Below are positions 87 through 42,528 of a stretch of 51,136 nt of DNA, piece by piece. The stretch lies in contig LXFE01004208.1 in assembly GCA_001929475.1 (NCBI GenBank), forward strand, positions 1 to 51,136, given 5' to 3'. Position 1 is the first letter of the stretch. Each line of letters starts with the position of its first letter. The DNA is from Neolecta irregularis DAH-3. Taxonomy: Eukaryota. The notes beneath the pieces are model-generated. The model had not been told where the DNA came from. It worked only from the letters and a program-made list of their open reading frames with translations, and did not search any database. A program made the translations under genes and the position numbers.

Positions 87-3000
87 ATGGACAGTATACC
101 GTTAGCACAGGATTCAGATCTTATGATTACGAGGCAGAACTCCAATATAGTAATCGATCCGCCTTATCGGCAGTATCCATTGTCAAGTTTGGATAAGGCA
201 TACCAAGAATCACCTGATAAATCTATCGACGAGAAAACAATAATAGATGTCCTAGTGGTAGTGGAAGATCAATTCTGAATCTCACATTGTTAGGCTGCTG
301 AAGGCCTGGATTCTGCTAGTCCTGACTACGCGCATGATTACAGTTCTTTTACACTCGAAGATTTCTCATTCTACAGCAAAAAAGAAGAAGACTTTAAGCC
401 GATTGTAAGATTATTGCTTTCTCAAAATGTCAATCACTTGCTCGCCGACGGCTATATTTGTGATGGCAATCATAGATATCGTGTGGAGAAAATATCTGTT
501 CTACGACTTTCCATTGGAAATGTAGTCAACTCTTCCCAAGATTTTGTGGACGGAAACTATAAAAGCGACCTTAGCGAGGCGATCTGGATACAATCAGCTT
601 ACGGAAATGCAAGGAATTTTTGGTATACCCTTGGGAAACCCGCGAAAGAATATGAGCCTTATTGGATGCCGTCATATTGGATTATGCTTTTTGCAAAATA
701 TTTCGCAGAGTACCTCATAGCTCATGAGAAGATCAGCCTCGAATCCTTTCGGTATCATTTTTGCGATTGGTTACAACATTTGCACAAACATAACGAAGCC
801 TTTAATGAGTGGTTTTCTCAGTGTCCACGAAATCGGGACTTGAGACAAGCTGTAGCATCATACATGCCCTTTTTACATCATTTCATTCATACTCTTGATC
901 GTCTTGATATCAGTTGGGACAAGGTCCATCCCGTCATTGAACAGACTTGGCCAGGTTCATTTGAGAAATACCGGACTTTGGTTGATAGGAATGGCAAATC
1001 AGTTCTCGAAGCAACTATTGTTACGCCATATATTTACAACAGGTTCGAGCATTTATACGCCAGAGAAATGTTTGAAGTTCGAGAGAAGCTAGAGTTTGTA
1101 AGTACAGATGGTAAAGAAGGTGATCTTGACCTTTTATGTGGATGGCTAAGGTCTTAGCCGTTCTAGAAATACCTAGGGCTCGCAGAATTGAACGTACTGC
1201 AACCGGTGAGTAAGGTGATTTGTAAGACTAATATATTAGGCATGATTGCTCAATTTGAGTATGCACCTGGCGAAATCAAAGTTGGGGATGTTGTGGCTAT
1301 AAAGCCTGATTGTAGGAGCTCTTGGAATAATAAAGGAATTTGGATGGGGTACTTTGCCAAACTGCCATTCTCCTATCTTGATCTATCTCAAGTTATGTTC
1401 AAGAAGTTCAAAACTTGCATTACAAGGACAAACTCGGAATAATTTGGTTGTATGCGGCCAAGGATACCCACTCATTGACTTTTGACTACGTCAACAAATC
1501 CGAGGCATCTAGTAAATACAAATGCATGATTGGCTAAGCAATTAGCGCTTCTGGTCTAATAACTGCAACTGCGATCAAGCCGCTATTTACAACTATGACG
1601 TTTTAGCAAAGGTTCCTGTACACTTTGGAGATAGTCCCGAGAAGAGTGGTATATTCGGTTAAGAAATATTTGCTAAATTTAGGTTGCGAATATTTTGTTC
1701 GCTTATTCTATCACACGGACAGTTTCTCTTTCCAGACTTTGAAAGCATCAGATATGGATGGCATCAACGGAAATAAACCTTGTGGATGCGCAAACACCAC
1801 ATGTTTCGAGTTTATGCAGAAGGAATTTCCTCCGCAGACACATGTCCTCTTCTTGGCAGCCAAGACAGACGCCTACCTTTCAGTAAGACGAATTGAGTCT
1901 TATGACCTTGAACATCGGACTTTTGCAATGCGAACTTTCCATAAGCGTTTTGACACGCCTGGCGAGCCATTGGATTCTATTGAAGTTTATTGGACTTCTG
2001 AAGTCCTCACTTATGACTTTCACAATTTCGACCTCATAGCTCGTAAATGTACTGTGGTGTACCTAGGCGAGACTAATCAGTTGACACCCGAATTGTTATA
2101 TGATGGTGCGGGAGATTTTGTAAGTTCTATACTTTTCATTTTTGATCCCCTAGTGGTTCTGCAGGAAGGCGAGATCACAGTCCGGACGACTGGAAGTCAT
2201 ACAACTTGATGAGATCGTCTCTCATTCCAGTGAAGACATTCTTGAGAGTGACAAATTATCCGGATTGGACCTTTTTTGTGGAGGTGGGAATTTTGCGAGA
2301 GGCATCAGTGATGCGGGAGCGGTTAAGCACAAGTGGTAAGAAGTAATGTCGCTACTTTCTTCAACTTTTATAGGGCAGTCGACATATATGGACCGGCAAT
2401 AAAAACATATGAAGCAAATTTATCATTGAATGAAGATGTCTATCTCTATCACGGTTCCGTTAACAGCTTCTTGGCTAGTGCCATTGCTGGTAAACGAGGA
2501 AACAAAATTCCGCAAAAGGCGAATATTCCATCATCTTTTCCACTGCTTATGCACTCTAGGGCGAAGTCGATCTCATTATTGCTGGCAGCCCTTGTCAAGG
2601 TTTCAGCCTCGCAAATATGGACCGAACGACAGAAAAATCACTCACAAATTGCTCCCTTGTTGCCTCTGTGGGTGCGTTCATCGATTACTACCGACCAAAA
2701 TTCTTTGTTCTCGAAAATGTACCACAAATGAATCCCCATAACTCCGAGAAAGACCAGGTTAACGTCTTCAAACTTCTCATATCAGCAGTCGTTGGTCTCG
2801 GATATCAAACACGTGGTTATAAACTTACTGCTGATTCGCAAGGTGCATGTCAGGAACGGACAAGATTATTCATTGTTGGGTATATAAATTATATAATCTT
2901 CCTAACTTTGATCAAGAGCAGCTCCCGGTCTAGATTTGCCTGAAAGTCCGCCGTGGTCGCACTGGACTCCACCAGTAGATGGTACTCCTACACAGTGCTG

Positions 3001-4300
3001 TCGTCTTGGTGTGGGTCGCGATGTCGTGGGAAATCAACTTGAACGAACCTCAGTGAAAGATCTGATAGGAGCATATCCCAGACGTTCGATCTCTTCAGCC
3101 CTTGACGATCTTCCAAATGTCTATGACAGCCATGCTCAAGTCTGTGTTTCCCATCCGCTTCATGTTGTATGCGCAAATCCTCATGAGAAACATCGTCGTG
3201 TAGCAAGCTGTATTCCACGATTCAACATACCTGAACACTTAAAATGGCTTTCAGACCTCTCATACAATGATGCTGTTAAACATGATCGAATTCCAAAAGG
3301 TCTGCGTTGGCAACCAGCTGATGAATTCAACGTTTCTTCAAGAGCAAAGTCGAAAGCATTTCATAGATGTAAACGCGACGAACCATCTTGCACTATCACT
3401 ACTCGCCCGGTGATATGGTATTCCCTCTCTTGTGTCAATATATTTAATCATTCAGCTCCAATATCGGTGGTAAAAATCTGCATTACGACTATCCTCGCTG
3501 TATTACGATAGAAGAGGCAAAACGATGTCAAGGTTCATCTTGAGCTCTGAGATCAGGCTAAATTAAAAGGATTTTTTGACTCTGATGTTTTTATAGGGAA
3601 ACCAGAGGATGTTATGCGAATCATTGGAAATTCTGTCGAACGCCATGTAGCATTTTCCATCGGCAAAAGTATTATGGATGCCCATCGAAGCAGCATGTCC
3701 AGGGAGCCTTTTCGGATTCCTCTTTGCAGATCATCAGCTACCGCAGGAGGCACAAGAGCGAAATTACAGGTTTCGGGGGAACAGGTTGGAGACACTACAT
3801 GCGCTACTACCCCAGAGAGATATTGGGTTTCTAGTTTCCCCTCATCAACAAGCACTACAAGCGAAAAGCTGGTGCAACCTTTGCCGGTTAGACCCCTTAA
3901 GCATAGACAGTCATTCTCGAATGACACCCCAAGATCGCCGAGCACTGAAAGCGAAGTTGTCATTCGTCGGCAAAAATATCGTCGAACTCTTAGGATTACT
4001 TCACCTGCGGAAGCCGACATACAGCTCAGCAAATTTCAAGATAATTCTCTACGGCTGAGATCACTATCAGCTCAGAGGCTCAGCTCAGAAGAAGTTAAAT
4101 TTATCTCAGTACCGGTTGTCTTCAGCGGAGTTGAGAGCCTGGACCTTGTGACATCATTACCTACAAATACACAGTCCATTCCAGTAGTTAAGACGGGCTC
4201 GTTTAGACGTCGTATATCTCAGCGTAAATCGGCAGAAAAGTGTAAAGACCTCCCGGATCCAGTTCCTTTTGTTCCATCACAAACACCTTTCAGAAGATGA
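87..4300 (+). CDS. dim-2: DIM-2-type DNA (cytosine-5)-methyltransferase with BAH domains, ~11 introns
   Basis: Spliced frame gives C5-MTase motifs in order: I (LDLFCGGGNFARG, ~2266), IV (GEVDLIIAGSPCQGFS, ~2560), VI (FFVLENVPQM), VIII (QERTRLF), IX (RCITIEEAKRCQGF), X (IIGNSV). The upstream BAH-like segment (IIWLY...DT...ERFWSNNCNC...EYFVR) resembles Neurospora DIM-2. Ends in a low-complexity Ser/Arg tail. Confidence 0.9.
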
Positions 4301-4483
4301 GATGATATCCTCTACATTTCATGAGTTTGAATGATGATTATCCCCCGTTGTCTTCTAATCCATAAATATGGGCGTGATCCATAAACTGAATATAGATCAT
4401 ATTTCTTATGTAATGTGTTACCTTTGGGTAACAGACGGTAATTCTGTGAAAATCGCTAATGGAAGAAGAAAAGGTAATGAATT

Positions 4484-5163
4484 TCATCTCAAGAGTTTCT
4501 GCCTCAATTCTTCAACTAATTTATCGGGTATATATCCCTCGTCCCATTGGAGAATGTGACCTCCAATTAATGACACACTAGTTGGTTTTAAAAGTAATAA
4601 TCCTCTGGAGATTTGGATATTCTTCACCATAATCTAGAAGGTCGGAAGTTTTCTGTGGCAAGAGTGTATACCTTTTGTCCTAGTCTCATTCCAACACAGA
4701 TTCCGTCAATAGGTTTCAGTTCAAACCCAAAACACCGCCGCCCGGCCCCGTCTTCTAGTATCAATTTACAGGTATGTTTTTTACCAACCAGTTCGTTGTT
4801 ATCAATTTGCTCTTCGAAGCCAAGATCTTGTTGTTCCTCTTCGTTTATTGCTTCTCGTATTTGCTGTCCGTGTTTGCTATCTTCAATCTTGTAGATCTGA
4901 CTCAAAGCCGACAGTCCAATATCTTCGACTCGATATATTTGTAACACAAAAGGACCCGAAATTGTGACATTGTGTTTCTCGAGGATATCCGGCGGAAGGA
5001 AGGTTTGGGGATCCGCGGATTGTTTAAGATCAGATACGAGGAAATGTGGGAGAATATGTTGGTGAGTAGAAATATTTGGAAATTCAATAAGAAGGGCTTC
5101 CAGCCATTCCTTGTCGAGATAAATCCCAACAGACTCAAAAGCTGTCAAGTCAGGGAGTACCAT
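4484..5163 (-). CDS. rmi1: RecQ-mediated genome instability protein 1 (RMI1, OB-fold), 1 intron
   Basis: LVSDL...LP...GPFVLQI..VEDIG.S and CKLILEDGAG..CFGFELKPI.GI...M.LGQK. After an intron: IMVKNIQISRGLLLLKPTSVSLIGG, stop at 4484. Confidence 0.85.
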
Positions 5164-5443
5164 TAATGATCAGCTGGAGTGACTAACCGTCGACATCTAC
5201 GGTAAGTGAAGATGATGATGTATTCGAGATATGCTTGAGCAGAAAGCTGATGGGAATAACTTCAAAAGTGAAGTTTGGCATAAAAACGCTCAGCTCAGAA
5301 ATTACAAAACACTTGAACTTTTGTCATTCATTCGCTCTACTATCTCATTTCTATGTTTTGCTGTGCAACCTGTCATGATTACGAGCCTCTTTTGGGTAAG
5401 GATTCCGTCCCTCGGCAGTTTAAGATTTTCAAAACTCAACGCC

Positions 5444-5555
5444 TTTGTCCCGCGTGAAATGTAAAATACGCGAAACGTGAAGGGAAATAACCACCGCCCC
5501 CACACCACTCAAAGTTTTGCTTATACCCTCCTAGATGCCTGTTATCTCGATATTC
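5444..5555 (+). repeat. Left terminal inverted repeat (~110 bp)
   Basis: gaaatgtaaaatacgcgaaacgtgaagggaaataacc...ttgcttataccctcctagatgcctgttatc matches the inverted copy at 6217-6327. Confidence 0.9.
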
Positions 5556-5682
5556 GAAGCGCTGGCTCCTTGGGGTGTCACGAGAGAAGCATGTCAGCCT
5601 ATCATCGAGTGTTTGAGGAAGAACCCAAAGGGATGGGTTGACTTTTTGATGAAGTTCAAACTTGGATTAGAAGACACGAGAA
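5550..5682 (+). pseudogene. Internal fragment of a VIT1/CCC1-family vacuolar iron/manganese transporter gene
   Basis: Translates as IFEALAPWGVTREACQPIIECLRKNPKGWVDFLMKFKLGLE, matching the VIT1/CCC1 cytosolic motif WVDFMMKFELGLE. No start codon or TM segments. Confidence 0.75.
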
Positions 5683-6117
5683 GTAGAATATACTTCTAGT
5701 TCTATGGCATGGGATTGGTTTGATCTCATTCTTTGCTTGTGTCTCTTTAGCAGTATCCCAGAGGAAAAAGTCAATCAAGATAGCGTTATTATTAATATAC
5801 CCAAGCCTTTCAATCTCCTGACGAATCTTTTCAACACATCAGCTTGATGTGCCGCGAAGCTGGATCTAGTATGGATGACCACGTTCTATCACAACTTAGT
5901 TTTTGATTAGGCTCTCCAGATGAGGTGAATAACAAATACAATTCAAGGTGTGGAGTGTTTGAGGTACCCTATGAACTAACTGGCCCGAAGTTTAAGTACC
6001 TTACCGATAGTCTGCAAACATTGTGATATGATCTGTCACAGAATGATCTGTATGACTCGCCGTTGAAATGAGCCCATATATCTGCCACCAATATTTGAGC
6101 GTGTTTACAAAATTTCA
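5683..6117 (-). pseudogene. 3' fragment of queuosine 5'-phosphate N-glycosylase/hydrolase (QNG1/DUF2419), decayed, intron retained
   Basis: FCKHAQILVADIWAHFNGESY...(frameshift) DHITMFADYR|intron 5969-6004|VPQTLHTLNCICYSPHLESLIKN*VVIERGHPY*IQLRGTSS*CVEKIRQEI...NAILIDFFLWDTAKE...IPCHRTRSIFY. This matches DUF2419 motifs KRAQIL, MFADYR.PQ, NAILIDFFL and HRTRSI.Y. Three stops and one frameshift. Confidence 0.88.
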
Positions 6118-6155
6118 CTACTAATAAGAATATTTACATGGACGAAATGCCTGTA

Positions 6156-6173
6156 TAACCCTAACCCTAACCC
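6156..6173 (+). repeat. Interstitial telomeric tract (TAACCC)3
   Basis: taaccctaaccctaaccc, three perfect TTAGGG units on the minus strand. Confidence 0.85.
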
Positions 6174-6216
6174 AATTGTGTGCATTATTAATAGTGTTGC
6201 TGTTTCCTGTAGAGTT

Positions 6217-6327
6217 GAATCACGGATAACAGGCATCTAGGTGGGTATAAGCAAAGCTTGAGTGGGTGTGGTGGCAGTGGTTATTTCCCTTTACGTTTCG
6301 CGTATTTTACATTTCGCGCACGACACA
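6217..6327 (-). repeat. Right terminal inverted repeat (~110 bp)
   Basis: Inverted copy of 5444-5555. Confidence 0.9.
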
Positions 6328-7763
6328 TGTAACTTTCTACGGCCTTCTCAAATTCCACTCGAATCAGGGATACCAGACGCCAAATTTCAGCGCTCTAATT
6401 GAGCGAATAGCCCTCTTTAGCAACAGTATTTAGTGGTTCAATTCCAAATGATCAGCGCTCGATTTCTTTCCTTCCAGGAAAGAAGAAGCTTCTAACGAGT
6501 TTCGCCAATCAATAACTCAAGCCGGAAAATTCCTTCCAATCCCCTATTTTCCAGCGTGATCAGACCCGAAATGGTGAAGGCTTCTGTGGATTCTTTTCGA
6601 AGAATCGATTTTCCATCTCGCTCAATGAGCCTCATTTTGCATTTGGGCTCTTCAGCACTTTCAGATCTGCACATCAACATTTTCCACAGGTCCAGTTTCC
6701 AAAAAATTGGCGCAATTCTAACACCCAGTAATAAGGTTCCGGAAAATCCATGTCAATTCTTGACATTCTATTGCGTTATATTTGCGATTGCAGGTGTGCT
6801 GGATTATTTGCCGACATTTTGGATCGTTGATGTTTTTCAGATTTAAGAACATTCTCAGACATCTCATTACATGGTCTCATGTTTCAGCTAGTGTTTATTA
6901 TTTCTTGATTTGATGAATTGGAGCATTTATTTCTCCGACAAGAGTCTAGGTATACAAAAATGATTGTAATCACTATTGACCTTTCCGAGTGATTTGACCT
7001 AATTTCATTTTATTAACTCCTATGGAGAATATCAGATTACACATCTCCCCAGAGTTATATCAGCGATGGGCTTTTTTCTGTTATCGCCCGCATGGCCTAT
7101 CCGCAAACGTGGAGCCTTTGCGTTTTTTCTGGTATATTTGTTTTTCATGAACTACTGCTACCTGCGTGACGGTTCGTGGGCATACTCGAATGATCTCGGT
7201 TCACTCTTTCAACCAAGGAACTGCCCCAAAAAATTGGAAAAGAACACATTGATGAATTGCTAAACGATGAAGAATGAACAAGGACAATACTGCGGTAGTA
7301 CCTCATTCGTTAGGATTTTCCGCTCGTGTAGAAACTGCACCTCGATATCTTTCCTTCTTTAAACCCTCCTAGCCTCTTAACTCTCATTAGTGCCGATACT
7401 TTTCTGTGGCTTAGACCTTTCCATATGTATTTATATTAACGGGTGTCCAGTTCAATTGAATTAATCCAAGGGTGCGTTTGGCGCGCACCAAATTTCATAA
7501 AAGTCAGTCTCTAAAATAAGATAGCGACAATTTTTAGATTTCCTAAGAACTAATCCGCCGACCTGTCGAATTCCACAAATCTCCCAAAAATTATTCGCGT
7601 TGGTTTGTCAAGCTCCCAAAACATTTCCTCAAATTTCTGTCGTTGCTTGGCTGGGGTTGCAATAATCCTTACTCGACTGCACCGAACCTCTCTTCTATAC
7701 GTAACCATCTCCTTCGTCCTCCGTCATACCCTAAATTTCGATTGATTTGACTGAATAAACGAT

Positions 7764-8171
7764 ATGTCGTCTACTCTGTGGAAACTTGTTGAACCATTTG
7801 TGTTTTTAGTTATTATTGGCATTATGGGGTTCACTGGATATGTTGTTTATTCGATCATGACCAAGTTATCCAGGTACGTCAGTCTCATCATTTGGTTGTA
7901 CCATACCCCCTCTTATTGTTTCTTCGTGCTAACGATGAACAACAGAACTGTTAATCGCAAAATGACAAATAAAGGGGTCCAGGTCACCCGTAAGGGAGCT
8001 CAAGTCCGAGTTAAAGGTGTTTCCAGGGAAGATTATATGGATAAAACTCAGTCGTATGATCGACGGGGTCAGAACTGCTAAAAATCCAGGGTCCTTGTTA
8101 ATGTGTGGAGGAATTCGGAAATGGAAGGCTATAAAAGTCGTTTGTGGAACACCGAGAAGCCAAAGAAATAA
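7764..8171 (+). CDS. Small fungal single-pass membrane protein, unknown function, 2 introns
   Basis: N-terminal TM helix (FVFLVIIGIMGFTGYVVYSI). GT-AG introns 7874-7945 and 8054-8089 join to VRVKGVSREDYMDKTQSVLVNVWRNS...SRLW. Confidence 0.7.
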
Positions 8172-8509
8172 GACTTGATGACAATGGAATGTCCAAGGGT
8201 ATTTACAAGGCCACATGACAAAATACACTACTGTATCAAGGCACAATACAGGATATCTGCACCAAGTAGTGATCCAAAGTAAAAATATTATAACAACCAC
8301 TACGGATACAAAGAAGATGATATTGGATGTGTTTTGCTAAGAGAATTCTGATAAAGATCAACCATATACTCCATATTCCCACAAATAAAGGAAAAAGACC
8401 TCAAACAATACAACAAAGCACAGAGAAAAAACAGTGACACCTTACACCCACAAGCAAGGAAAGAGATATGACTTAGAGAAGTGTGCTTTTTAGAATTGGA
8501 CTCCCATGT

Positions 8510-9088
8510 TTATAGTAGGATATTCATGATCCCGCGTTCTTCGCGCTGTAGTTCTTCGCGAGCAAACTTGTCGAGCGGGCTCTCTTCCCACATAGACGAA
8601 TCAGGAGTAGGAGGATCAGACTCTGGATCTTCGACGACTTCGTCATCGTCTGTCTCGAGCTCGGGCATTTTATTTACGGGCCCACGCTCTGGGAGAATTG
8701 CCATCTGTTCGTCATCTTCGAGCTCGATATGCATGTCTGTGGCGGGAGAGGTGGAGTAGCGAATTTCGATTTCTTCGACATCGTCTGCAAAGTCTTCAAA
8801 GGTGGAGGTTGTGCCAGAGGCGATGTCTACCATCGTCTCGTCGAACCATGCCTGTTCCATGCGGCGGGTCTCGTCGATGTGGGATAGGAGGCGCTGGAAG
8901 ACACGGAAATGGCCGAGGACCTTTTCGAGATGCTCGTGGTTTACGGCCTGTCGTGCTCTGAACTGGGCGAGATGCAGGAGGTGTGTTGCGCGCTGGATGG
9001 ACATTGCGGCAGCGGCGACGGGCGGCGGCTGCGTTTTTAGCTGCGGGTGCGGTATCCTGTAGGGCGGCGACGCAGTATGGGAATACAT
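8510..9088 (-). CDS. ECM13-like protein with acidic C-terminus
   Basis: Intronless ORF. MSIQRATHLLHLAQFR...HLEKVLGH...EQAWFD resembles the ECM13-type motif (L.LLVGH...EQE.WF), followed by a D/E-rich region. The start may be the second Met. Confidence 0.6.
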   Translation of the reverse strand: MYSHTASPPYRIPHPQLKTQPPPVAAAAMSIQRATHLLHLAQFRARQAVNHEHLEKVLGHFRVFQRLLSHIDETRRMEQAWFDETMVDIASGTTSTFEDFADDVEEIEIRYSTSPATDMHIELEDDEQMAILPERGPVNKMPELETDDDEVVEDPESDPPTPDSSMWEESPLDKFAREELQREERGIMNILL

Positions 9089-10303
9089 CTGGCCGAACCG
9101 GATTGCTGATGCTGAGGTGGCAACGAGGGATTACAAAAAGGCGGTGGGTGGAAGGAAAGTCGGCTAGAACATGGAGAGGGACTGGGTGAGCAGGGCAAGC
9201 CGGAGCGAGGGCTAATTAAATAAATAAGGGGTGGGTGACTCGATCGGCTGGGAAATGGCGCGGCTCCACCACAAAACTCGTCCATTTGCATCGGCGAATC
9301 GGCCAGGCTAGCTGCAGCGGCATGTTTATACGCTGATATGCGATATCGTGCGATATCGTGCAAGATGACGCATGCACCCAACTGAGGCGGAACAAAAGCA
9401 CCACCCAGACTACTCGCTGATCAAGCTGCAGACCGGCATTTGAGAGATAAGAGGCCCTTGATGCAATATTGACTGTTTGGAGAAAGCCATCTAGTCGGGG
9501 TGCTGCGCTTGGTGCCAGATATAATCAAATCCTCGTTTGCGAATGCTTCAAATACATACGTAGCGCTGTTGCCATTGTTTGACACCCAGGCTCAGTGTGG
9601 CCTTTACTTCTAGCTCGAATCATATCCACAAACTTGTCATCCAGGTAGGCGAACACACCAGAGATAAGCCGCCGGTTTCTCCCGCTGGCTTTCCCGGAAA
9701 GTCAAACAAAAGATAACGCAGCAACGGGGGAGTCTCCAGTGGAGACTGAGTATCCGTGGAGTGGCAACGTATCTTTGAGTTTCCTCTGTCTCGTTTCCGT
9801 CCCAATCTGGAGTTTCATCCGACTGCTATCCACCAACACCCGTCTATATTTAGCACCTGTTGACCAGCTCGCTGGAATACAAAGAAACATCTCTCGATCA
9901 TGTCACATTACTAAACTCTGTTTTACCCTTGAAATATAATAGAAAAATGCAGCAGATTCAAGTATGCAAGTGCAAGAAACACCAGCATACTATGCCGAAA
10001 CGTGTTCCATGTCTCATGCCTCTATATGGTTTAACGCCAGCCCCTAGCAGTAGCAACCAAAATTACACATCAACATTCGTCAGTTCCCATTATTCAAAGG
10101 AAATCGCATGCGCAACATATCGACCTTCAAGTCAACAGGCAATAGGTACTGTCAAATAGAATTTCCATAGAACAATCGCCATTCACTTCTGATGAGAACA
10201 TTGATATATATGAAGATTCTACTCATTCACTTCAAGGATATGCACAACTAAATATCTACCAGACTGCTTAGCAGTTCTGCTCGCATTCAATCCCTCCAGG
10301 AGA

Positions 10304-12146
10304 TCATGCTGTAATTTTCCCCACAAAGGCGTTAAAATTGTACTTTTCAATCGAGTTTGAAATCTCAACATCGCCTATCCCAGATATCGTTACTCCCGAA
10401 CTGTCCCCGACAAATTCTATAACTTGTTTGCCTTCTTCAAAAGGCAGATTTAAAACTTGCAGACCTGCTTTGACCTCTGTGCAATTCCATGTCGAGCCAG
10501 TTGTAACTGTAAGTTTCCCAGGTTCTTTCAACAGTGCGATAACAATGATATCATCAGATGCGTTGTCTGCGTTTTCAGGGAGACCAAAAGGATCGTTTTG
10601 TGCTGTCGCGGATTTACTATGTGTTCGGTACCAATAGTAAATTTCGTTGAACTCGATGACTGGTTGAGAGCCGGATTTATACCATTGGATATAATACTTT
10701 GCTAAATCGCACCAAATGGAATGATCAAATCCTGTCACGAATTCTTCCGAACCTTGAGGGAGAGATCCTCGGATGTCGGAGACGTATGTCGATTCTCCAT
10801 AGTCATTCCAGGTAATTATTTCTGTAAATATCTGAGAGCTTTCAATTATTTCCATCCATCGTTCATGAAAAAGAAGCTCTGAAGGATAAATCCAGTTCTT
10901 TGATGAAAGGTGAGTGAAGAACCACGGCGACCAACCTAATCGTTAGCCAAACATGACAAAACCAAATAGACCAACCAGACATATAAGTCTTTTGAGTCTT
11001 TAATGACAAAGAAGTATATTTTTCATCAAGTCGAGAGATCTTATTGGTCCAAGCATCCCAGCTGAATGCACCATCGACAAAAGGCATGCTATAAATCTCT
11101 GTAGCATCCATCGCTGTCCAACAAGGAATAAAATAAATTGACAATCCATCGTTCTCCAAGGGATCGATAAATGCAGTTTTCCAACCACTTCTAACATTAT
11201 TCGATCCAAACATCTGATCTTGACCGGAAAAAGTACTGACGAATACCTGATTTTGATATAAAAAGTATGAAGAGTCGGATGCGTATTTCTTTACATAGCC
11301 AACTAATTCTTCCGAAGAATTCATCACCGACATGTCGAAACTGAAAAATAACCGAACATTAAATGATTTGGCGGCTTGGAAAAACGCTGATACGCGTGCA
11401 GGCATCCATTCGTCTGGTCCGAGATTTAATGCAAAAGCATCGATACCCATATTCATCGCTCGATGTAGATCTGTCCTGAAATCTTCTTCCGTATAAGAAT
11501 ATACATTGCCCATCATGAAATGAGCAAAGACATATCGTTTCTGTTTTTCTGCATAACCATCAGAAGACGACGAAGAACTCGAAGATAAAGAGGAAGAAAT
11601 GGTGGAGCGACGAACAGAGTTTGTGGCTAACGTCGTTGCTATCTGCGTAGAAGAACTAATCAAGCTTGCAATTGTTTGTTTTATTGGAATAGACATACTC
11701 GAGGGTTCAGTAATGATTGCAATATTTGATGGAGAAAGAGTGAAGGGTGTCTGGGTACCGAAATTTTGGGACACGGGTAATGTTAAATTAGGAACAGTGG
11801 TAGTAACAGGATTGGGTATAGTTGCTCGCGTGGGTGTCGGATTTGCATTGTTCGGCACGGGTCCAGTTGTCCTCTGAACAACTGTTTCGACAGGAGAATT
11901 TCTTTCCGCGATAGCAGTTGCATACACCGTCGAGTGATTGATGGTTTTGGTGCCACAGACTGAAGCGCGACTAGTGCTTGAAATAACTGGTGGTGTAATG
12001 GATTGTTGACTGAGCGAAAGACAGGCCGTAACAATGACTTGCACATCTATATTCTTTCGGTTCAAATGGAGATGATGTCGATGTCCAACTGGAAAAGCAA
12101 GTATAGTTTGCGTGAGTAGAAAAAAGAATGAATAGTAAATGGTCAT
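10304..12146 (-). CDS. agn1: Secreted glucan endo-1,3-alpha-glucosidase (GH71, mutanase/Agn1-like), 1 intron
   Basis: Signal peptide and S/T-rich region, then YVFAHFMMGN, GIDAFALN, FFSFDM, FVSTFSG, SPWFFTH, KNWIY, EIITWNDYGESTY, YYWYR.H, YNFNAFVG. Intron ~10936-10975. Confidence 0.92.
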
Positions 12147-13279
12147 CTCGAATGACCAAAGTACTTCAAAATGTGGGTTTGATTGCTATTGTATAGGGGA
12201 GGGAGGAAATGAGCGTGGGAATCTTCTTGAAGACAAACGGAAAAATCAAAGAAAGACGAAACGGTTGTAATGAACTGGTTCTTTAGGATCAGGTATTATT
12301 TAAAGACCGAGACAGAAGTTTTTTCTGGTCAATGGTGCCGAGATAGGATGGTTGCCGAAGGGACGGATGGACACCTCGAGACGGCTTCAAGGTAGTACAA
12401 ATATCGAGAGATAGAAGGTCCATATAGGCAGATATACCAATGTATGTCGAGGTTAGATATTGCCGAATGTCAATCTGGAACGGGGGCTTGAGTCGTGCAA
12501 GATGAATGAATGTATGTTTGTCAGGGATAAAAGTTGTTTCGAAATTTGGAGTTTCAGCAGCGCTAGTCTTTCGAAAGCGTTGCTTGAGAATCACAATAAT
12601 TAGAGGTCTGTTGCATACTCCACTCTTTTTATTGGCGCCCCTAATCTGTCTCGCTTCTTTTCCACGCAGCCGATTTCAAATAGGCTGCTGCAGCCTGCAC
12701 CTAGGAAACCCTCTCTGACGTGTCCGATTCCATTGCCAGTGCTTATCATACTTTATTTAATAGCAATGGCTACGAAGCTGATCTTCCCATTCATCCGCGG
12801 GTTCTCAAATAATTTGGGAGTCTCAAAGGCGATAAAAACTATGAAAAGGGAAAAATGTAAGGAAAACTAGCGCCCCGCGGAACGAGGCGTGGGCCCTCGG
12901 GGTGCCAGGTCAAACAAACACACCACCAGAATAATGCGAATCACTCTTTCCAGCACGACTATCCTTTTTAAGCTCTGCCGATAGATACAACCGCGATCCG
13001 TATCCGTAAATGAGGTAGCAGCGGGATTTTGGTGCCGTAGCCAGTGGAGCGAATTCCGTGGATATGGTACAACCAAGTAGCCGGAGCTCCCATTTGCGAG
13101 TTTCCATGCGGTCTAGCCAGATCAGCACAGAACAGCATGGAAAGAGAATAGCGCTGTAGCCGCAATAGGCCGCCTGCATTGCCTGATTTTGCTTTCCGCA
13201 CTTTTCGCTTCGTCTTCTTTTGTCTTGATCGTCTTTCTCTCGTCCCGCCGCCTTTCGACATACACTGCTTGTTGTCTGC

Positions 13280-16200
13280 ATGCGTTGCATCTCCATTCTC
13301 CATGTCCTGCTGCCGCTGTCAGCTTACGCAGCAAGATACAGCGCCGATCAGGTTCAGTACAATCTTAACACCAACAAATCTGCCACCGAGGTCCTTGACT
13401 ACTACGGAAAGTGGGAAGGCCATACCTTCTACCCCTCTCCCGACAATTGGCGCTTTCCTATATATACAATCATCTTGGACAAATGGGTCGATGGTGATCC
13501 CCGCAACAACGACGCTGACGGCACCGTGTACGAATACGATCCATATGAAACACAGTTCCGGCACGGAGGCGATGCAACTGGCTTGAAGAATAGCTTGGAT
13601 TATCTCCAGGGGATGGGAATCAAAGTGGGCATTGTAACGTGTACAAGACTAAATTGAAAGGGTATTTACGTAGCTGGAACTTTTTACCTTCAACAACCTT
13701 GGCAAGCTGATCAATACTCCGTATAGCTCACGCGCAAAGCAAATGTAACTAATATAGCCACTCGACTTTACTCTTCTGGATCCACACCTAGGAGGAATAG
13801 ATGAATGGAGGGCTCTCATCGATGAGATACACTCTCGCGGAATGTACTTTATTACTGATATGACAGTTGCAACGTACGTTTGTGTGACTGGCACTCTAAC
13901 TCTCAGATTGGGTGACCTTGTCGGGTTTCAAGGCTATCTTAATACCTCTACGCCTTTCTCCTTGAATGAACATAAAGCACAATGGAAAACATTAAAAGAA
14001 TACCCGGATTTTCACTTCAATAATGAATATAATGAATCCTGCACATACCCAGATTTTTGGGGCGACGATGGTGAACGTGTTTATGACTCTGAAATTTCTG
14101 GTCGGAAAGGGTGTTACGAGAGGTATGCTTTTCTTTTCAAACTCTGAGCCTAATGTTGCAGTGACTTTGATCAATATGGAGACACGGAAGCTTTCGGTGT
14201 ATATCCGGATTGGCAACGTCAATTATCCAAATTCGCGTCTGTCCAGGATCGTCTTAGAGATTGGAAACCAACAGTTGCAGCCAAACTTCAACATCTAGCA
14301 TGTCTTGCTATTCTCATGCTCGATGTCGATGGGTTTCGAATTGACAAAGCTACGCAAATGACGGTCGACTTCATGGCAGATTGGGCTAGTTCTGTTCGAG
14401 ATTGCGCAAAGTCCGTTGGAAAAGAAAACATTTACATTCCTGGAGAAATAACTGGAGGTGATTACTTTGGTGCAATCTATCTCGGTCGAGGTCGAGAACC
14501 AAGTCAACGTCCAGCGGGAAATGACTCGCTACTCACGGCAATGACAATGACGGGGAATTCGTCCCAGGATCAATATTTCCTTCGAAAGAAAGGTCACAAC
14601 GGTCTTGATTCGACAGCTTTTTCATATACAACTTATCGCGCACTTACTCGTTTCCTGCATATGGACGGTAATCTCCAAGTGGCGTACGATCTTCCCGTAG
14701 ATTTCGCAGAATCATGGAACTTGATGTCTGTCAATGACGATTTTGTGAACCCAAATACTGATGTCATCGATCCAAAACATATGTTTGGTTTGACTAATCA
14801 CGATGTCTTTCGATGGGCTGCACTGGCAGACGGTCAACCACGACAAATCCTTGGTTCAATGATCACAACTATCATGTTTCCTGGAATATCGCTTGTTTAT
14901 TACGGCGAAGAGCAAGCTCTATATCTCTTCGACTCGACTGCAGACAATTATCTCTTCGGTCGACAGCCCATAGTCTCCAGCATCGCGTGGCAAACTCATG
15001 GTTGCTACGCCATGGGTTCGTCTCAATATTTCAACATGCCTGTGGAACCCGCTCGAAATGGTTGCTATGACGACTGGAATTCTCTCGATCATCGTGATCC
15101 AGCTGCGGAAAGTCGAGTTATCTTGAAGCAAATGTATGAATTACGATCCGCTTATCCTTCACTGAATGATGGGTTCAACTTTTATAAAATTCGGAATTGG
15201 ACAGTCGATCTGCAACTTCCCGGATCGAATGGAGTTCCCACAACAACAGGGCTCTGGAGCGTTGTCCGAGGTCCTTTTGATGGTGTCCAAAATTTCTACA
15301 ACAATGCGGGAAATACCAAAGTTTGGGTCTTGTACACCAATCTTGATTCGAGCAAACAATACGAATTTATTTGCAACAGTGCAGATGCAATCGTTAGCCC
15401 ATTTATCAGCGGAACAACTGTCAAAAATCTATTCTGGCCACATGATGAATATACTCTTGCAGATTCAACGGTTTCTTTCTATAAGAACAGCTCCAAGCCT
15501 TATTCTGGGTGTCTTGATAAAATCTTTATGGACCCTTGGAGCTTCAAAGCTTTTGTTCCAAAAGTTAACTTTGTACCGCGACATCCAACTGTAACTGGAT
15601 TTTTACCGGGTCACGATGCCAGATTGAACAATAGCAACACGGTCGACATAGAGATAAAATTTTCCCAAGAAATGGACTGTAAAGGAATATCTTCAGTTCT
15701 ACATCTCGCTTATCGAATTATGGATACGTCAAGAACTCCAACATTTGGAATAGCGAGTTGTGAGACATATACAAACGCGACTCAGCCAAAACTATTCGCG
15801 GCTCCAGGAAGCTCTTTTGTTTGGCGAAACACAATTTCAGACGTCGCCGATGGAATTTATTCCCTCACATTACGAAATGCAAGTAATCTGGCTGGAACAG
15901 ACTGGACGTACGCTAATGATACCTTCTTGCTTCGAATCGGCAACATTGATAATCCTCTCGTCCATACCAGAATTGCCAACTACTCGAAGGACCTATTATC
16001 GAGGAACTCTGATGGTAAATTGCAAATCAAGAAAAACGCTGCCGGGGCCGATCTGTTTCGCTATTCGCTTGATTTTTTCAGCTCATGGACAAACTGGTTA
16101 GAATATCCAAATGGAACTGATCCTATTGCTCTCAACGAAACTCATTGGACGGGAACTTCAGCGCAAGCTTGGGAAGGCACGCATGTTGTTGTTCAGGTAA

Positions 16201-19200
16201 TTATATGCCTCTATATTGTTTTGATCTGCCAGTATTACTCTTTTCTCTCCGGTTCATCGTCCCATATTCAGCACGCCGATCTCGATCTTCCCGAAATGTA
16301 TCCATATCGACGATTCCCACATCTTTGGCTCAATGGACCCTTTAACAAATTTGGATACGATCAAGGTTTAAATAACAAGTTTCATTACGGAGCAGACGGC
16401 AAATGGAGATACGATTTTATGGCGGACTGGGATTCGGGTCCAACTTTTCAAATGAATGTTTGGAATATTAATCCTGACGCTCGACCTGACGTTGCTTTTG
16501 TTTACGGAGATACAGACCTAGATGGAATAATAGATCGTTTACCTCCTTCTGCTCTTGGTATCTCATCCTTTATACCATGAACTCATTAGATCAGCTAGTA
16601 ACCTCATGACGATTACCCATGGTCCAGAAAGTCCTTACCTCTCATGGCAGATTGTTCTTGATGATGCCACAAGACGATGGACAAAGGTTGGGAAAGGAAG
16701 TCGAACGCTCTCGCTCATATTTTTCATTGGTTTATTTATTATCCCCGTTTTTACAGGGGCTCTTGCCGCTTGGACTTTTATGGGCTCCTTTTATGCTGTC
16801 AAATTCAATAAACATGGGAAACCGATTCGACGAAACTTCATTCCTCTCGAGCCGCTCAAAGGCCTCTTCGGAATGAAGGGTTCTTCAGGCGAAAAAATTA
16901 AAAAGTATGATAGCGTTTCTCCTTCCACGCCTGGTATGATCGCATCGTCCTATATCCCGACAAGTGCAGCTGGCGGTGTCCTTGATCCTAATAGAAGACG
17001 TAGAAGTGTTCTAATCGCTACTCTTGAGTATGACATTACGGATTGGGCAATCAAGATAAAGATTGGAGGCTTAGGTGTCATGGCTCAGCTAATGAGTAAA
17101 AATCTTCCCCACGAAGATCTTATTTGGGTTGTACCGAAAGTCGGGAATGTAGAATACCCTCAAGCCGATCCATTGCCGCCAATGGAAGTGAAAATTCTCG
17201 ATCACGTTTATCAAATCGATGTTCAGTGTCACCAGTTAAATAATATCAAGTATGTTATACTCGACGCTCCGGTATTCAGACGACAGACTTCATCTGATCC
17301 ATACCCTGCTCGGATGGATGATCTTGAATCCGCTATTTTCTACTCTGCGTGGAATCAATGTATTGCTGAAACAATACGTCGTTATCCGATTGATATCTAT
17401 CATATCAATGACTATCATGGTGCCCTTGCTCCTCTCTACCTTCTTCCAAATGTCGTTCCTTGCGCGTTATCCCTTCACAATGCAGAGTTCCAGGGCCTCT
17501 GGCCTCTTCGAACCGCTGCTGAAAAAGAGGAAGTGTGCTCGGTTTTCAACATTAGTGAAAGCGTGTGTCGAAGATATGTTCAGTTTGGCAATGTATTCAA
17601 CCTACTTCATGCCGGAGCTTCATTTCTTCGTATTCATCAACAGGGATTTGGCTCTGTCGGTGTGTCTACCAAGTACGGGAAACGATCATGGGCTCGGTAT
17701 CCTATTTTTTGGGGATTAAGCAAAATCGGCAACCTACCGAATCCAGATCCTTCTGATACTGGAAAACCTGATGACGAATCGACTGTTGCTTCGAACAAGA
17801 AGAATGATGCTATTGACATGGAAGCGGAAGCAAAACGAACCGAGTTCAAGGCCCAGGCTCAAGATTGGGCGGGCCTCGATGTCAACCCGGAAGCTGATCT
17901 TCTCGTGTTTGTCGGGCGATGGTCTATGCAAAAGGGCATAGATTTGATTGCTGATATTGCGCCATCAATTTTGGAAGAGTACAACTGTCAACTCATTACC
18001 GTTGGTCCTGTTATCGATCTCTATGGACGGTTTGCGGCCGAAAAATTCGACAAGTTAATGAAAAAATATCCTGGGAAAGTATTTTCGAAACCTGAGTTTA
18101 CTCAGTTGCCGCCCTATATCTTTAGGTATGTCACTAATTGTGGTATTATCTTCTAACCTTTTAGTGGAGCCGACTTTGCCCTTATACCTTCCAGAGATGA
18201 GCCTTTTGGATTGGTCGCGGTAGAATTTGGCCGAAAAGGTGCTCTTGGCATTGGAGGTTTGCGCTATTGCCGATTCAACCTTACTTTCTAGCCCGTGTCG
18301 GCGGCCTCGGTGCCATGCCCGGTTGGTGGTTTACCGTTGAATCCAGTGCAACTCAACATATGATTGCCCAGTTTGAGGCCGCCTGCCACGAAGCATTAAC
18401 GTCCCCCAAGGAAATACGAATGACGCTTCGAGCTCGATCCGCTAAGCAACGGTTTCCCGTAGCTGAATGGGTTCGAAAGATGGATGAGCTTCAATCCGAA
18501 TGCATTCGCTTACTTGAGAAAAACAAGAACAAGAAGAGTATCTTCGGTTCTTCAGTTTCGACTACAGACTTGACGAAGACCGATTCCCCACAGCCATCCA
18601 TTTTACAAACAGCACCTCTGTCATCTTCCGAAAGAGAGGAACTGATGATTATGAACAGCTCCTCAACGCCGAACATCTTGATCACCCCAGACAAACATCG
18701 CCTCGCCGAAGCAGAGAGTTTACCTGAGGCACTCCTGCCCAACCAACCTCTTGCAAACAAAAAAGGCAGCACCAGTCTTCAGCGAATGGGCTCTCATCTG
18801 GGTCCCGGTCATGTATCTAATAAACGAAACCGTGGTCACCGAAAAACAGAAACTAACCTCAACGCAATTGGAGAGATCGATGGCGATGAGTCAGCTACAG
18901 AATTTGATGAACCTCAAATTCCATGGGCTCCACATCGCACGTCTCAAGCTATGATATATGGGAACGACGAACGACCCCTGTCGGAATCTCAAGATCCAAA
19001 CAATTCATACTATCAGGTTGAATCCTCTCGAAGCAGCATTATCAGTTTTTACGAAGATGACTCCCCACCTCGGGATTCTCCATTTGGTCGACTTCAGAAT
19101 CAAAACAACCCTTATGGACTACAATTTAATTCTGGTCTCGGTCTGGATTCTCCAGCTCAAAGCCATCAAAGCATTTCATCCACGCCTAACGCCACAGATC

Positions 19201-21121
19201 AAAGTAAATTCCAAACTCGACCACTCCTTCTGGCCGGCCTTGGAAACCATGCCAACCAATCAGCACTCAGTCTAGCTACGGTCATGAGCGAAAAGAGTGA
19301 TTTTGCATTAAGCCATACAGTGGAGAATTTCACCGATGCCAATGGTAAGGTCTTGGAACAGTTCGCCCTTGCACTAGAAAATATTAACTCAAAAAACTCA
19401 AAAGGAGAACTGTGTATCGAGGAATACCTGATAAAAAGTGAAAAGGCTTTCTTCAACGATGTTCGTGCGAAGAAGCTGGGCTTTGGTGGGGATAAAAAGA
19501 TTACTGTTCACAAAGCGCCAAGCATATATTCTATTGATGGACCAGATTCGAGTCAATCACCATCTGGCTCTCATCGTAAGTATTCCTAACCCAAGTGATT
19601 TGTTGACTTACAGGTGCTTCCTTTTCTATAGAAGAGCCAATACTACCACTAAAACCACCGAGAGGTTTACAATTATTCATGCAACGCCGCCTGGGAGATT
19701 GGCCTTATTACAGTTTGCTCATGGCAGTCGTATATCACTGTTGGCTTCATTTCCTGACTCTCTAGGGGCAAATCTTTGCCGCTTCTTCATATCAATTGAC
19801 GCTACTGTCAGGTTCTGTAGCTACACCGGCCGCTATGGTATACGCCATCTGTATTATATATGCTATGGCCTCGATTATCTGGTGGCTTCTTTACCGTCGT
19901 CTTCCGGCTTATTATTGTCTTTCGATCCCTTTTATCGTGTACAGTGTGGCTTTCTTTCTCATTGGTCTACCTTTTTTCAGCATCTTCAACAGTACAAGAT
20001 CGGTCATGAACCATGTTGCTATGTGTATCTACGCATTCGCTTCTGCCTCCGGTTCTCTTTTCTTTGCCCTCAATTTCGGAGATGAAGGTTTTCGATTCAG
20101 TCAGTGATATTTTTGACCCCATAGGTGGTGCTCCCGTAAAAGAGTGGGTTTTTCGTGCATGCATGGTTCAGGGAACTCAGCAAATCTGGGCTGCTGCATT
20201 GTGGTATTGGGGATTCAAATATGATATCGATAGCTCGAGAGGAACATTATCGAAAAATACAACACTCGCCACACTTTGTATTACATGGCCTTTATCAATC
20301 CTTACATCCTCCGCAGCTTTGGCCATGTTCATTGGATTGCCTGAATACTATCGACAACTCCCGGGTAAAATTCCGTCATTCTATAGAGCTATTGCCAGAA
20401 GAAAGCTTGTCATCGTAATTGATTTCTTCGTTAATGCCTGATGATCTAGTGGTTCCTTATTGCCGTCGTTCTGCAAAATTATTGGCTATCTGGTCCTTAC
20501 GGGCTGAATTGGTCATTCTTATGGGAAAGTTCTTTGAAAGTTTGGCAGACTGTGGTACTGATTGCGGTGTTCTTTGGCGGTGTCTGGGGTTTCATGATGT
20601 TCATTCTCGGTCGTTTCTCAAAGACTCACTCATGGTTTATTCCGATTTTTGCCATTGGCCTCGGTGCGCCTCGATGGTGTCAAATACTTTGGGCCACTAG
20701 TGGTCTAGGACAGTGGGTTCCATGGGCTGGTACAGCAGGACCATTCGTTTCTCGTTCTTTGTGGCTATGGCTTGGTATTCTTGATGCAGTTCAAGGCATC
20801 GGCTTTGGCATGATGTTGCTACAGGTACTTTGGTTTCCTGCGAGTCTGACTAACAATGCATAGACACTTACGCGTGTCCATGTAGCGTTTTCTTTGGTGT
20901 TTGCTCAATTCGTCGGATCTATCACCGCAGTTTTAGCTCGAATAACTTCACCAAGCGCCATTGGCCCTGGTGATGTCTTTCCCAATTTTACAAACTGGCA
21001 ATTTGGCGATGGTTCTGGTCCATGGGGCAAGGCTTACTTTTGGATGGGATTGGCCTGTCAGCTCATAATTTGTGTTGGCTTTTTGCTTTTCTTCAGGAAG
21101 GAACAGCTCTCAAAACCGTAG
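13280..21121 (+). CDS. ags1: Cell-wall alpha-1,3-glucan synthase (Ags1/Mok family), ~12 introns
   Basis: Signal peptide; GH13-like extracellular domain ([20 protein letters not shown]); TM; GT5-like domain ([37 protein letters not shown]); C-terminal multi-TM domain ending FRKEQLSKP. Confidence 0.96.
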
Positions 21122-21445: not shown

Positions 21446-21577
21446 GACAAACCGTTAATTTAACCGGATCGTAATCTTGATTCATTTACAACATTTTGAA
21501 AGATATTTTCGGACAAACCGTTAATTTAACCGGATCGTAATCTTGATTCATTTACAACATTTTGAAAGATATCTTCG
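21446..21577 (+). repeat. Tandem duplication, 2 x 66 bp, one mismatch
   Basis: gacaaaccgttaatttaaccggatcg...gaaagatat(t/c)ttcg starts at 21446 and again at 21512. Confidence 0.95.
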
Positions 21578-39641: not shown

Positions 39642-40542
39642 ACTCGCAATTTCCAGAGCAGCGGTAGAAGAAGAAGTAATGGTACGAGTTGTGTTACTGT
39701 AGCTTTCCAAGGTGGCAGTGAGTGTATATCCTAACGAGGAAGACCAATGAATTGCAGACATTGATGAAGAGATAAAGAGCAACTTGGGTGGAATCGAGAA
39801 TTAAAAAGAGAGGAATTGCAGGCATCGCCTAGATGTCGTCATTTACATAGGTTCAAGCATTCCAGCTCGCAACTTCTAAATATTACGACAGAGCCATGTG
39901 CTATACACTTTCCAAACCGGGTGATGACCACCATATCGCTGATTTAGGGTGCGTTCGTCAGCCGTCATTTTGACCCAAAAATCATGATATTAGGCCATTT
40001 TGACGTATTTCAATGAAAACAACTGTGGCGTTCGGCGCCACATCAAATTCCAACGTTTTCTTGAGATATTTGTCAGCATATCTCAAGAAAAGAATACTGA
40101 TCCAGTCAGTGTGAGTAAAATCAAAGGATACGGTCTCAGGTGAGTATCACAGTTCATCCAGTGGGGTTCTTTCAATTGAACGTAAAATTGATTCTCTGAT
40201 ATACACTTACATTGAACTTGAGACCAAGGAATAAAGCCAGGATATTTATCTGAACGCATCATGTAACAAAATTAACCCTATATATAACGACGCCTCAAGG
40301 AAGAAAAGTTGGTACAGTCTGTTGCGGAGCCAGTGAAATTTAAACTTATTCTGAACACTTTCCTATCCCGTGTCTTACTTTCTACAATATGTATTACATG
40401 AGGGTGGTAGTACTGATATTATGAATTCCGAAATGAACATTAATTCTTGAACAAATTGGAATCTCGGGACCACTGGACTAAACAAGTAATTATTACTTTT
40501 GTGTGAAATCATCAGCAAATACAGAGGCGATTTTCAAATCGA

Positions 40543-42528
40543 TTACACAAGCCAATCCCATGCTTTGGCATACCAAGTCCCAGGTAATTGTTCCCGCCAC
40601 TCAGCAGCTTCACGATCAATTCTTTCTTTTCCAGTGAAAAAATCCATCTCCTCTGGCTTGACGAATCGTGTTCGTTTGATGGCCTTGTAACCGAAGAATA
40701 GGACAGCGAAAAGAATGATGCTTATATACGAAGCAAAAAAACCAGAGGTGTCAAACCCATCTTGAAAGGTGTCGAAACCATTAAAAATGATAATTAAAAC
40801 GAGCCAAAAGAGCGCAAAACTAGACAAATTTAGTTTGACAGGAAAATAAATACTTACTAAGAACCGTATGGTTGCCACCGGGATTTGAATGGAAGGTCAT
40901 CCCGCGACAGTTCCTGAACTTCCATCCCTTTCTTGAATCTTAGAAAAGCGACGAGAATTGTACACCACTTGATATAAGTACTCGCTGGAGACCAGGATAC
41001 ATACTGTGACAATGTTTCCAATCGCAATCAAATTGGAAAACCAGTCAAAAACTTGAGACGATGAGCTTCCAAGATTCAAATAAGCCATTAAAGTCAGTAT
41101 GGCGATACTGACGACACACCACAGCGGGACCCCTTGACGGGTACACTTTTTGAAAAATGAAGGTGCTTTCCCGTCGAGGGCTAGTGAGTATAATGTTCGT
41201 GAACCGGCGTAGACGAACGAGTTTCCCGCTGACCAAGCCGATGAGAGGATCACACCATTAATGATGTGTGGGACAACATCTATTCCAACCCTTTTGATCC
41301 CAATAACAAAGGGCGAGGCAGATGCGCCACGTCCTATTCCATGTCAGCTGTTATGCTAAAAGGTTTCCAAGATACCTCCACTCTTGATTTGCTTAGACAT
41401 CTCAGGATCATTGTAGGGAACAAGGACACCTATAGCCAGAATCCCAAGAACGTAAAAAACAAGAATTCGCCAAAAGACTCGTCGAACAGCTTTTGGAACG
41501 TTGCGCCGAGGATTACGGGTTTCTCCAGCAGTAATCGCAATTAGCTCCGTTCCTCCAAATGAAAAAGCAGCTTGAGTCAACACCTTCCAGAGTCTATAAC
41601 CTTAATATATGTCCAAAGAATTTCGAAATACCCCAAAAACAACCCTGCTCCCCCCATAGAAAGATATTCATGCATAGCTCCTGGACTCCTCCAGTATCTT
41701 GATTTTATAAGCAGAAGTGCTGGGCAGTGATATACCTAAATCCAATGCGATCATGTTTGGGGTTTCCTCCCAGACATACGATGAATGATAGTAAAAGTAG
41801 CCCCACTATTGTTACAATCTTAATACTCGCGAACCAAAATTCTGTCTCTCCGTACATTTCAACCCCTACAGTGTCAGTTCCCAAAAATACAAAATTATCC
41901 GAGAACGTAGATACCCAGGAGATTTAGTCCAATAATAACGATATATAAAATGGTAATATAAACTGCGACATTGACTTTATGTTCAGTATCCCAGAAATCA
42001 ATGACGAGCGCGGCAGCGGTGATTTCCGCTGCTGCCGTAACTCCGAATGAAAACCAGTAAAGCCACCCTTGAGCAAATCCCCTTACGATCAGTAAAATCA
42101 TTCTAAAAAATAGCATACCATGCTTCATCTATATACCTTACCGCCAAGCTAGGAACCGCACCAGGTAGCGGAAGATAGGTTACGATCTCACCCAGACTTT
42201 GCATGATGAAATATATCAGAACACCCATGAACGTATACGCCAGGAGAGCAGATAAAGGACCTGCGTTAGCGAGCGATTTTGCTGATCCAACAAAAAGTCC
42301 CTACAAGGATTAGAGCCACTCTTTCGGATGAAGATCAACGGTGCCAATAGTCCCTCCCAATGCAATAAACTGAACATGACGAGCCTTCAACTCTCTCTGA
42401 ACTTCCCCGTATACCTCAACCTCCGCCTTATCTATAACATCACGGGCATATTGTTTCTTGTTTTTCTCATCGATGGGAAGCGATGAAGAATTTCGATCAT
42501 AATGAGGCGGATTGAGTTCTTGGGTCAT
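40543..42528 (-). CDS. Amino-acid permease (APC/YAT family, Put4/Dip5-like), paralog A
   Basis: RELKARHVQFIALGGTIGTGLF, GFAQGWLYW, YGETEFWFASIKI, AAFSFGGTELIAITAGE..NPRRNVPKA, SAWSAGNSFVYAGSRTLYSLA; 8 introns. Confidence 0.93.

Follow-up and report, generated by a model that had tools for sequence, protein, structure and literature searches.

In the intergenic DNA upstream of RMI1 in Neolecta irregularis DAH-3, pieces of two host genes, the iron-transporter gene VIT1 (VIT1/CCC1) and the queuosine-salvage gene QNG1 (Q_salvage), lie tail to tail between two long inverted arms. The locus raises the question of what kind of structure holds these pieces, and from where, and in how many steps, they were acquired. 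The initial annotation had read it as a Pack-MULE-like transposon that encloses a chimera of two captured genes. We analysed it within the whole contig stretch of 51,136 nt (the window), together with contigs of two sequencing runs. It is probably a decayed, transposase-less, non-autonomous TIR (terminal inverted repeat) DNA transposon of 880 bp, of the 'Pack-type' or transduplicating kind, which belongs to a multi-copy family in Neolecta (Taphrinomycotina) and carries cargo from one VIT1/QNG1 donor locus. Its features are collected in Table 1.

Table 1. Features of the element upstream of RMI1, in positions of the window
Feature	Positions	Strand	Remarks
Left terminal inverted repeat	5446-5555		ungapped arm, 5446-5546
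Captured VIT1/CCC1 fragment	5550-5682	+	open 44-codon frame, residues 114-157 of Neolecta irregularis VIT1
Internal junction VIT1/QNG1	5682-5683		donor-like cDNA contig has 329 nt more here
QNG1 (Q_salvage) last exon	5683-5968	-	pseudogene, three in-frame stops
Retained QNG1 intron	5969-6004	-	36 nt, GT..AG; from the sequence and a cDNA-like X2 contig skipping 5967>6004
Upstream QNG1 exon piece	6005-6154	-	frameshift and further in-frame TAA; homology stops at 6154
(TAACCC)3 telomere-like filler	6156-6173	+	between two breakpoints
Sub-terminal backbone	6172-6216		common to family members with other interiors (X1 record 7; X2 records 12 and 13 begin at 6172)
Right terminal inverted repeat	6217-6325		ungapped arm, 6225-6325

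Arms, ends and related copies

Aligned without gaps, the two arms are complementary at 87% of 101 nt, and a gapped blastn alignment extends them to ~110 nt at ~90% likeness, in agreement with the TIRs of ~110 bp that had been annotated. On the inner side, the likeness of the left arm to the right one fades over positions 5549-5555, which is where the donor homology starts. The arm pair is the sole inverted repeat of at least 50 nt that the repeat search found in the 51-kb window, and it lies far beyond chance, because the four remaining inverted pairs measure only 25-32 nt at 72-76%. No second copy of the arms or of the element occurs within the window (blastn with word size 7, and the repeat search), and the 23-nt core of the arm has 0 matches in a metagenome collection, a result that speaks only for that collection.

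Six-frame translation, Pfam and tblastn found no transposase or other open reading frame (ORF) between the arms, as the initial annotation had stated. Pfam likewise found no transposase among the neighbouring and large ORFs (20 ORFs of the window), the large ones being ordinary fungal genes, i.e., RMI1, GH71, an alpha-1,3-glucan-synthase-like gene, a P450, amino-acid permeases and Dbp7. The Dbp7 ORF had no near relative among the named proteins listed, the best identities being 38-44%. The element encodes nothing functional, and its movement would be possible only with a transposase supplied in trans. Two of the marks of a Pack-MULE are present, namely long TIRs (tens to hundreds of bp, here 101 nt ungapped and ~110 nt gapped) and host gene fragments between the arms in place of a transposase. 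The third, a target-site duplication of 9-11 bp, is absent at this locus, where a search for duplications of 8-11 bp had been proposed: a scan of 22 x 22 boundary pairs gave no convincing candidate, the perfect direct repeats are at most 4 nt long, and the best 8-mers resembling a duplication carry 2 mismatches and need asymmetric boundaries. On this point the label 'Pack-MULE-like' is not supported.

The rest of the window has several features of its own. A multi-exon gene at 294-4300 (+) begins with an ORF that contains DUF7893 (E 5e-18) and a weak DNMT1-RFD match (E 0.0019, below the cutoff), and its later ORFs resemble, by eye only, the C-terminus of a C5 DNA methyltransferase; this DNMT1-like gene lies two genes away from the transposon. 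On the other side, a GH71 alpha-1,3-glucanase gene at 10304-12185 (-), with PF03659 on two ORFs (E 7e-51 and 6e-56), adjoins the alpha-1,3-glucan-synthase-like gene at 14154-19589 (+), which carries Glyco_transf_5 (E 2.4e-16), and together they would degrade and synthesise one and the same polymer. A 66-nt unit is duplicated head to tail at 21446-21577 with 98% identity. Three tandem paralogues occupy 40500-48800 at a spacing of about 3.03 and 3.3 kb and with a DNA identity of 65-75%; one ORF among them, 47214-48077 (-), is an amino-acid permease (PF00324, E 2.8e-60). The two introns confirmed by cDNA-like contigs, at 4872-4907 and 5969-6004, are both exactly 36 nt long with GT..AG ends, which is unusually short for a fungus.

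Related copies were sought in two public runs of one study, X1 (DNA contigs) and X2 (cDNA-like), whose contigs were aligned to positions 4300-7500 at a likeness of at least 80%; the window may itself have been assembled from X1. The 3.2-kb stretch drew 104 X1 contigs, 33 of them at 99% or above, 20 at 95-99%, 32 at 90-95% and 19 below 90%, with 41 of the 104 lying only partly on the stretch and 12 fitting two places. Among the 33 X2 contigs, 24 lie only partly on it and two fit two places. The summed X1 depth is 1133-11370 in the bins of 5370-6332 against 408 and 362 in the flanks, it rises only between the ends of the repeat, and it is highest in the right arm (11370, against about 362-408); summed contig depth is not a copy number, and these values are read only as many diverged arm variants and several interior variants.

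The contigs also define the ends of the element. A unique X1 flank contig (record 1) enters the left arm by 40 nt and ends at 5485, and another (record 8) begins inside the right arm at 6290, so that unique flank sequence reaches 36-40 nt into either arm before the contigs break, as expected at a repeat. Two X1 contigs part from the window exactly before 5446, and three X2 contigs part from it after 6315 or 6319; these breakpoints mark the element ends. In other contigs the likeness is confined to the arm-proximal 6172-6325, and a different sequence precedes it (three from X1 and two from X2 beginning at 6172, and three from X2 at 6190), and hence the same backbone carries different interiors. 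Opposite-strand joints of 5481 or 5973 to 6259, present in two X1 contigs, suggest rearranged family members whose arm borders on the QNG1 intron region in reversed orientation. In neither run of this one study did a contig joint skip 5446-6325, as an empty site would.

The same arms, with a common terminal base, are thus found at several dispersed loci, as read from contigs rather than from a full genome. The membership in a multi-copy TIR family that had been proposed is supported by the contig variants of both runs and by the depth rise confined to the element, and the diverged arm copies in both runs speak against a TIR restricted to this locus.

Cargo pieces and their donor

The VIT1 piece lies where, and on the strand on which, it had been annotated. 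Its Pfam VIT1 match has an E of 6.3e-4, under the curated cutoff, and its sole protein match is OLL21692.1 (187 aa), annotated as Vacuolar iron transporter 1 of Neolecta irregularis DAH-3, with 36 of 40 residues identical in BLASTP and 40 of 46 in tblastn (residues 114-159), i.e., 87-90%. No VIT1 residues other than 114-159 are found in the window by tblastn. The annotated VIT1 gene itself stands elsewhere, because the contig that carries OLL21692.1 is 46,492 nt long and cannot contain a window of 51,136 nt.

The QNG1 piece, on the opposite strand and tail to tail with VIT1 as had been annotated, comprises the C-terminal ~138 codons, 6133-5683 (-), interrupted by the 36-nt intron; in tblastn, only QNG1 residues 228-363 are present in the window. 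Its two parts match Pfam Q_salvage over profile positions 189-285 of 285 (5683-5967, E 7.2e-26) and 150-177 (6005-6133, E 3.7e-7). The last exon contains the in-frame stops TAA (5896-5898), TAG (5866-5868) and TGA (5839-5841), a further in-frame TAA stands at 6134-6136, and there is a frameshift near 6030-6040; as judged from these lesions, the copy is a pseudogene. Its own stop codon is missing as well, since the VIT1 piece is joined on at 5682/5683, directly after the last codon, and the reading frame runs on past the residues ...SIFY. A protein search (18 proteins at E <= 0.001 among 59 candidates) gave QNG1 proteins of Morchella, Lipomyces and Tuber as the closest, the best only 54% identical. 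An annotated Neolecta QNG1 was not among the protein-database matches; it is either unannotated there or was missed by the word filter.

The GT-AG intron, too, stands where it had been placed: an X2 contig skips exactly that stretch (5967>6004, 36 nt, with CT..AC ends on the + strand), and a DNA contig, X1 record 4, spans it. Because the intron is retained, the cargo was captured from genomic DNA, as the initial annotation had proposed.

X2 contigs skip two 36-nt GT..AG introns, 4871>4908 in RMI1 and 5967>6004 in QNG1, and give no cover over 6333-6974, from which we infer that X2 is an RNA-derived run. One of its contigs (record 11, 1313 nt) carries both cargo pieces colinearly, ordered and oriented as in the element but separated by 329 additional nt: positions 466-599 correspond to 5549-5682 with 8 other letters and positions 929-1214 to 5682-5967 with 29 other letters, after which the contig skips the intron and continues for 99 nt more. 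Its loose end before 5549 reads in frame, by eye, as the residues of OLL21692.1 that just precede the fragment. At the positions of the three stops it has 5898 A>G, 5868 A>C and 5839 T>C, i.e., CAA, GAG and TGG on the coding strand, and the GAG and TGG agree with the Glu and Trp of Morchella and Tuber QNG1. With its intron spliced, its sense codons and its upstream VIT1 frame, record 11 is best read as mRNA-derived sequence of an intact, spliced and expressed donor that exists elsewhere.

The donor is, in turn, best read from this contig as a pair of convergent neighbours, VIT1 and QNG1, whose ends lie within 329 nt, the gap being mostly remaining VIT1 coding sequence; this adjacency is read from a single assembled contig of the presumably RNA-derived run X2. 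About 100 remaining VIT1 codons fit the 329-nt gap, because the VIT1 protein P0142 covers only positions 1-154 of the 214 of the Pfam VIT1 profile. Among the X1 contigs listed, none could be recognised as genomic DNA of the donor itself. The donor search that had been proposed for both genes thus led to VIT1 on another contig and to QNG1 as X2 record 11, so that an intact donor elsewhere, a further mark of transduplication, is at hand. Since record 11 carries both pieces colinearly, a single capture with a later 329-nt deletion is the simpler reading, and the cargo is most likely one captured segment that spanned a tail-to-tail gene pair and later underwent internal deletions.

Copy history and alternative readings

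The stop codons of the QNG1 pieces order the events. The TGA at 5839-5841 is derived, X2 and other fungi having Trp at this codon, and it is kept by all three X1 contigs: at position 5839, 0 of the X1 depth of 1503.2 shows another letter, and by depth three contigs contribute (460.3 + 523.4 + 519.5). Because all of the X1 depth keeps this TGA, there are at least three genomic copies derived from a single captured copy in which the Trp codon was already lost. The TAA and TAG (5898 and 5868), on the other hand, are private to the present copy, two of the three X1 contigs and X2 carrying sense codons there; the present copy gained these two stops after the multiplication. Shared and private stop codons thus give the copy history, i.e., capture, then multiplication, then private decay. 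We considered repeat-induced point mutation (RIP) as the cause of the decay and found no support for it, since transitions and transversions are about equally frequent between the arms (7 versus 8) and the X1 contigs differ at 51 transition and 37 transversion sites.

The capture of donor genomic DNA would most likely have taken place by template switching during gap repair of the element. The cargo-bearing element would then have multiplied to at least three copies, and the present copy would afterwards have lost both the 329 nt that separated the gene ends and another part of QNG1.

The second of these losses coincides with the telomere-like repeat. The (TAACCC)3 block that had been annotated occurs at one place in the window (2 overlapping matches, 0 expected by chance), between a breakpoint at 6154 and another at 6172: three X1 contigs have loose ends behind 6154, and three X1 and two X2 contigs have them before 6172. 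The repeat is crossed, among the contigs listed, by record 6 only, which is identical to the window. The three X1 contigs that pass 6154 continue into sequence that reads in frame as more QNG1 (by eye, against the QNG1 protein P0004), and therefore other copies hold more of QNG1. In the present copy, what once linked 6154 to the backbone at 6172 was lost, and only the telomere repeat stands in the gap. Three telomere repeats fill this second deletion junction, on the QNG1 side, and either telomerase or copying in the course of break repair probably put them there. Short blocks of telomere repeats at sites of double-strand-break repair are described in mammals, in the accessible text of two reports (PMC2246262, PMC7215372). 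The likeness to those interstitial telomeric sequences is a short telomere block exactly at a rearrangement junction (6154 and 6172); the differences are that, as far as this text goes, those blocks lie in vertebrate chromosomes, whereas the present one lies inside a fungal transposon and its mechanism is only inferred. A telomere patch where internal sequence was deleted gives a hint of how such elements are rearranged.

There are other ways to account for the locus. The structure may be no transposon but a dispersed inverted-repeat structure formed by break repair or segmental duplication, whose arms are some other genomic repeat. The missing target-site duplication in the boundary scan and the missing transposase speak for this, and the telomere-repeat filler, the several internal breakpoints and the odd opposite-strand joints 5481>6259 and 5973>6259 point to repair events. 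We nevertheless regard it as unlikely, because a sharply bounded arm pair, other copies that end at the same base, 5446, and one arm-proximal backbone joined to different interiors are the marks of a TIR element family. An assembly artefact that wrongly joined repeats at this locus is highly improbable. The short-read contigs do break inside both arms, and over 5772-5811 the sole X1 contig listed departs from the window by A>G at 5778, T>A at 5810 and a 3-nt gap at 5785, so that it either comes from another copy or shows a minor conflict between assembly and run. However, X1 contigs match the window letter for letter over 4300-5485, 5616-5771, 5812-5947, 6074-6248 and 6290-7500 (X1 being possibly the window's source data), and X2 record 10 crosses the junction of left flank and arm without a difference.

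The cargo, for its part, might be a true chimera, its VIT1 and QNG1 fragments deriving from two separate captures at unlinked loci, as the initial annotation had it. Multi-locus chimeras are common in plant Pack-MULEs, and the two pieces abut tail to tail at 5682/5683 without a spacer. Nonetheless, such a chimera is quite improbable given record 11, in which both pieces keep their order and orientation at a distance of 329 nt, with intact codons, with upstream VIT1 coding sequence and with a gap that the remaining ~100 VIT1 codons fit. In-situ decay of a VIT1 and a QNG1 gene that once stood at this locus is favoured by nothing beyond the presence of the fragments, and it is already contradicted, and next to impossible, on several counts: only internal or C-terminal parts are present and these are bounded by the arms, an annotated VIT1 stands on another contig, an intact expressed donor sequence exists elsewhere and the interior is multi-copy. 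The preferred reading therefore remains that of a TIR element with one captured segment.

An RNA fold of the whole element pairs both arms at -321 kcal/mol (z -12.3 against 20 shuffles). This fold-back is strong in silico only, and the hairpin or antisense RNA against the donors that had been suggested is not supported. In X2, no contig was found to carry the present copy's own interior letters, the listed interior positions being covered only by variant contigs, an outcome that says little either way. It is a long shot that Neolecta, with its small, intron-rich genome, harbours a still-active Pack-type TIR family that repeatedly takes host genes, has its breaks healed by telomerase and yields hairpin or antisense RNA against VIT1 and QNG1. 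The element is dead, and apart from its position upstream of RMI1 it is probably without effect.

Comparison with known transposons

Plant Pack-MULEs, as Jiang et al. are said to have described them in 2004, have long TIRs, no transposase, and host gene fragments with introns between the arms. The present element is like them in its TIRs of ~100 nt, the lack of a transposase, the intron-bearing host fragments, the multiplied cargo copy and the insertion near the 5' end of a gene (RMI1). Unlike them, it is without a 9-11-bp target-site duplication and its host is a fungus; moreover, a single locus, not several, seems to have supplied its cargo, and nothing links its family to a Mutator (MULE) transposase. 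With MITEs and internal-deletion derivatives it shares its small size, its non-autonomous, TIR-bounded and multi-copy nature, and interiors that vary by deletion and filler DNA, whereas classical MITEs are without recognisable host gene fragments; the present family seems to have a modest number of copies.

Fungal gene capture had been attributed in the initial annotation mainly to Helitrons and giant elements, which overlooks the transduplications by hAT and Tc1/mariner elements. In Pyrenophora tritici-repentis, such elements carry histone H3-like genes, a case that Manning et al. (2013; PMC3538342) called the first in fungi, and in Pseudocercospora fijiensis and relatives a hAT element captured a histone H3 retrocopy (Dhillon et al. 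2019; PMC6710886). In the accessible text of these two reports, the likeness to the present element is that of a fungal TIR transposon that carries and multiplies host coding sequence, of which the copies may be inactivated. The elements described there are 2.3-9.5 kb long, keep a transposase or dimerisation domain, and have TIRs of 18 bp and 8-bp duplications, whereas the present one has 0.9 kb, arms of ~105 nt, no transposase remnant and no clear RIP signature. In the P. fijiensis case, according to the same text, the cargo is a spliced retrocopy, whereas here it is genomic DNA with an intron.

We found no paper with a title on Neolecta transposons, and the string 'transpos' has 0 occurrences in the main text of the genome paper. 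In sum, transduplication by TIR transposons in fungi is already known, and the general understanding of it is unchanged by this finding. The present element differs from the known fungal cases in that it is small, has no transposase remnant, and combines long arms with intron-bearing genomic cargo. As far as the two reports above present them, those cases are large hAT or Tc1/mariner elements in Dothideomycetes; beside these, the present locus is a clear example of a small TIR element without a transposase that has captured gene fragments, in an early-diverging ascomycete lineage, the Taphrinomycotina.
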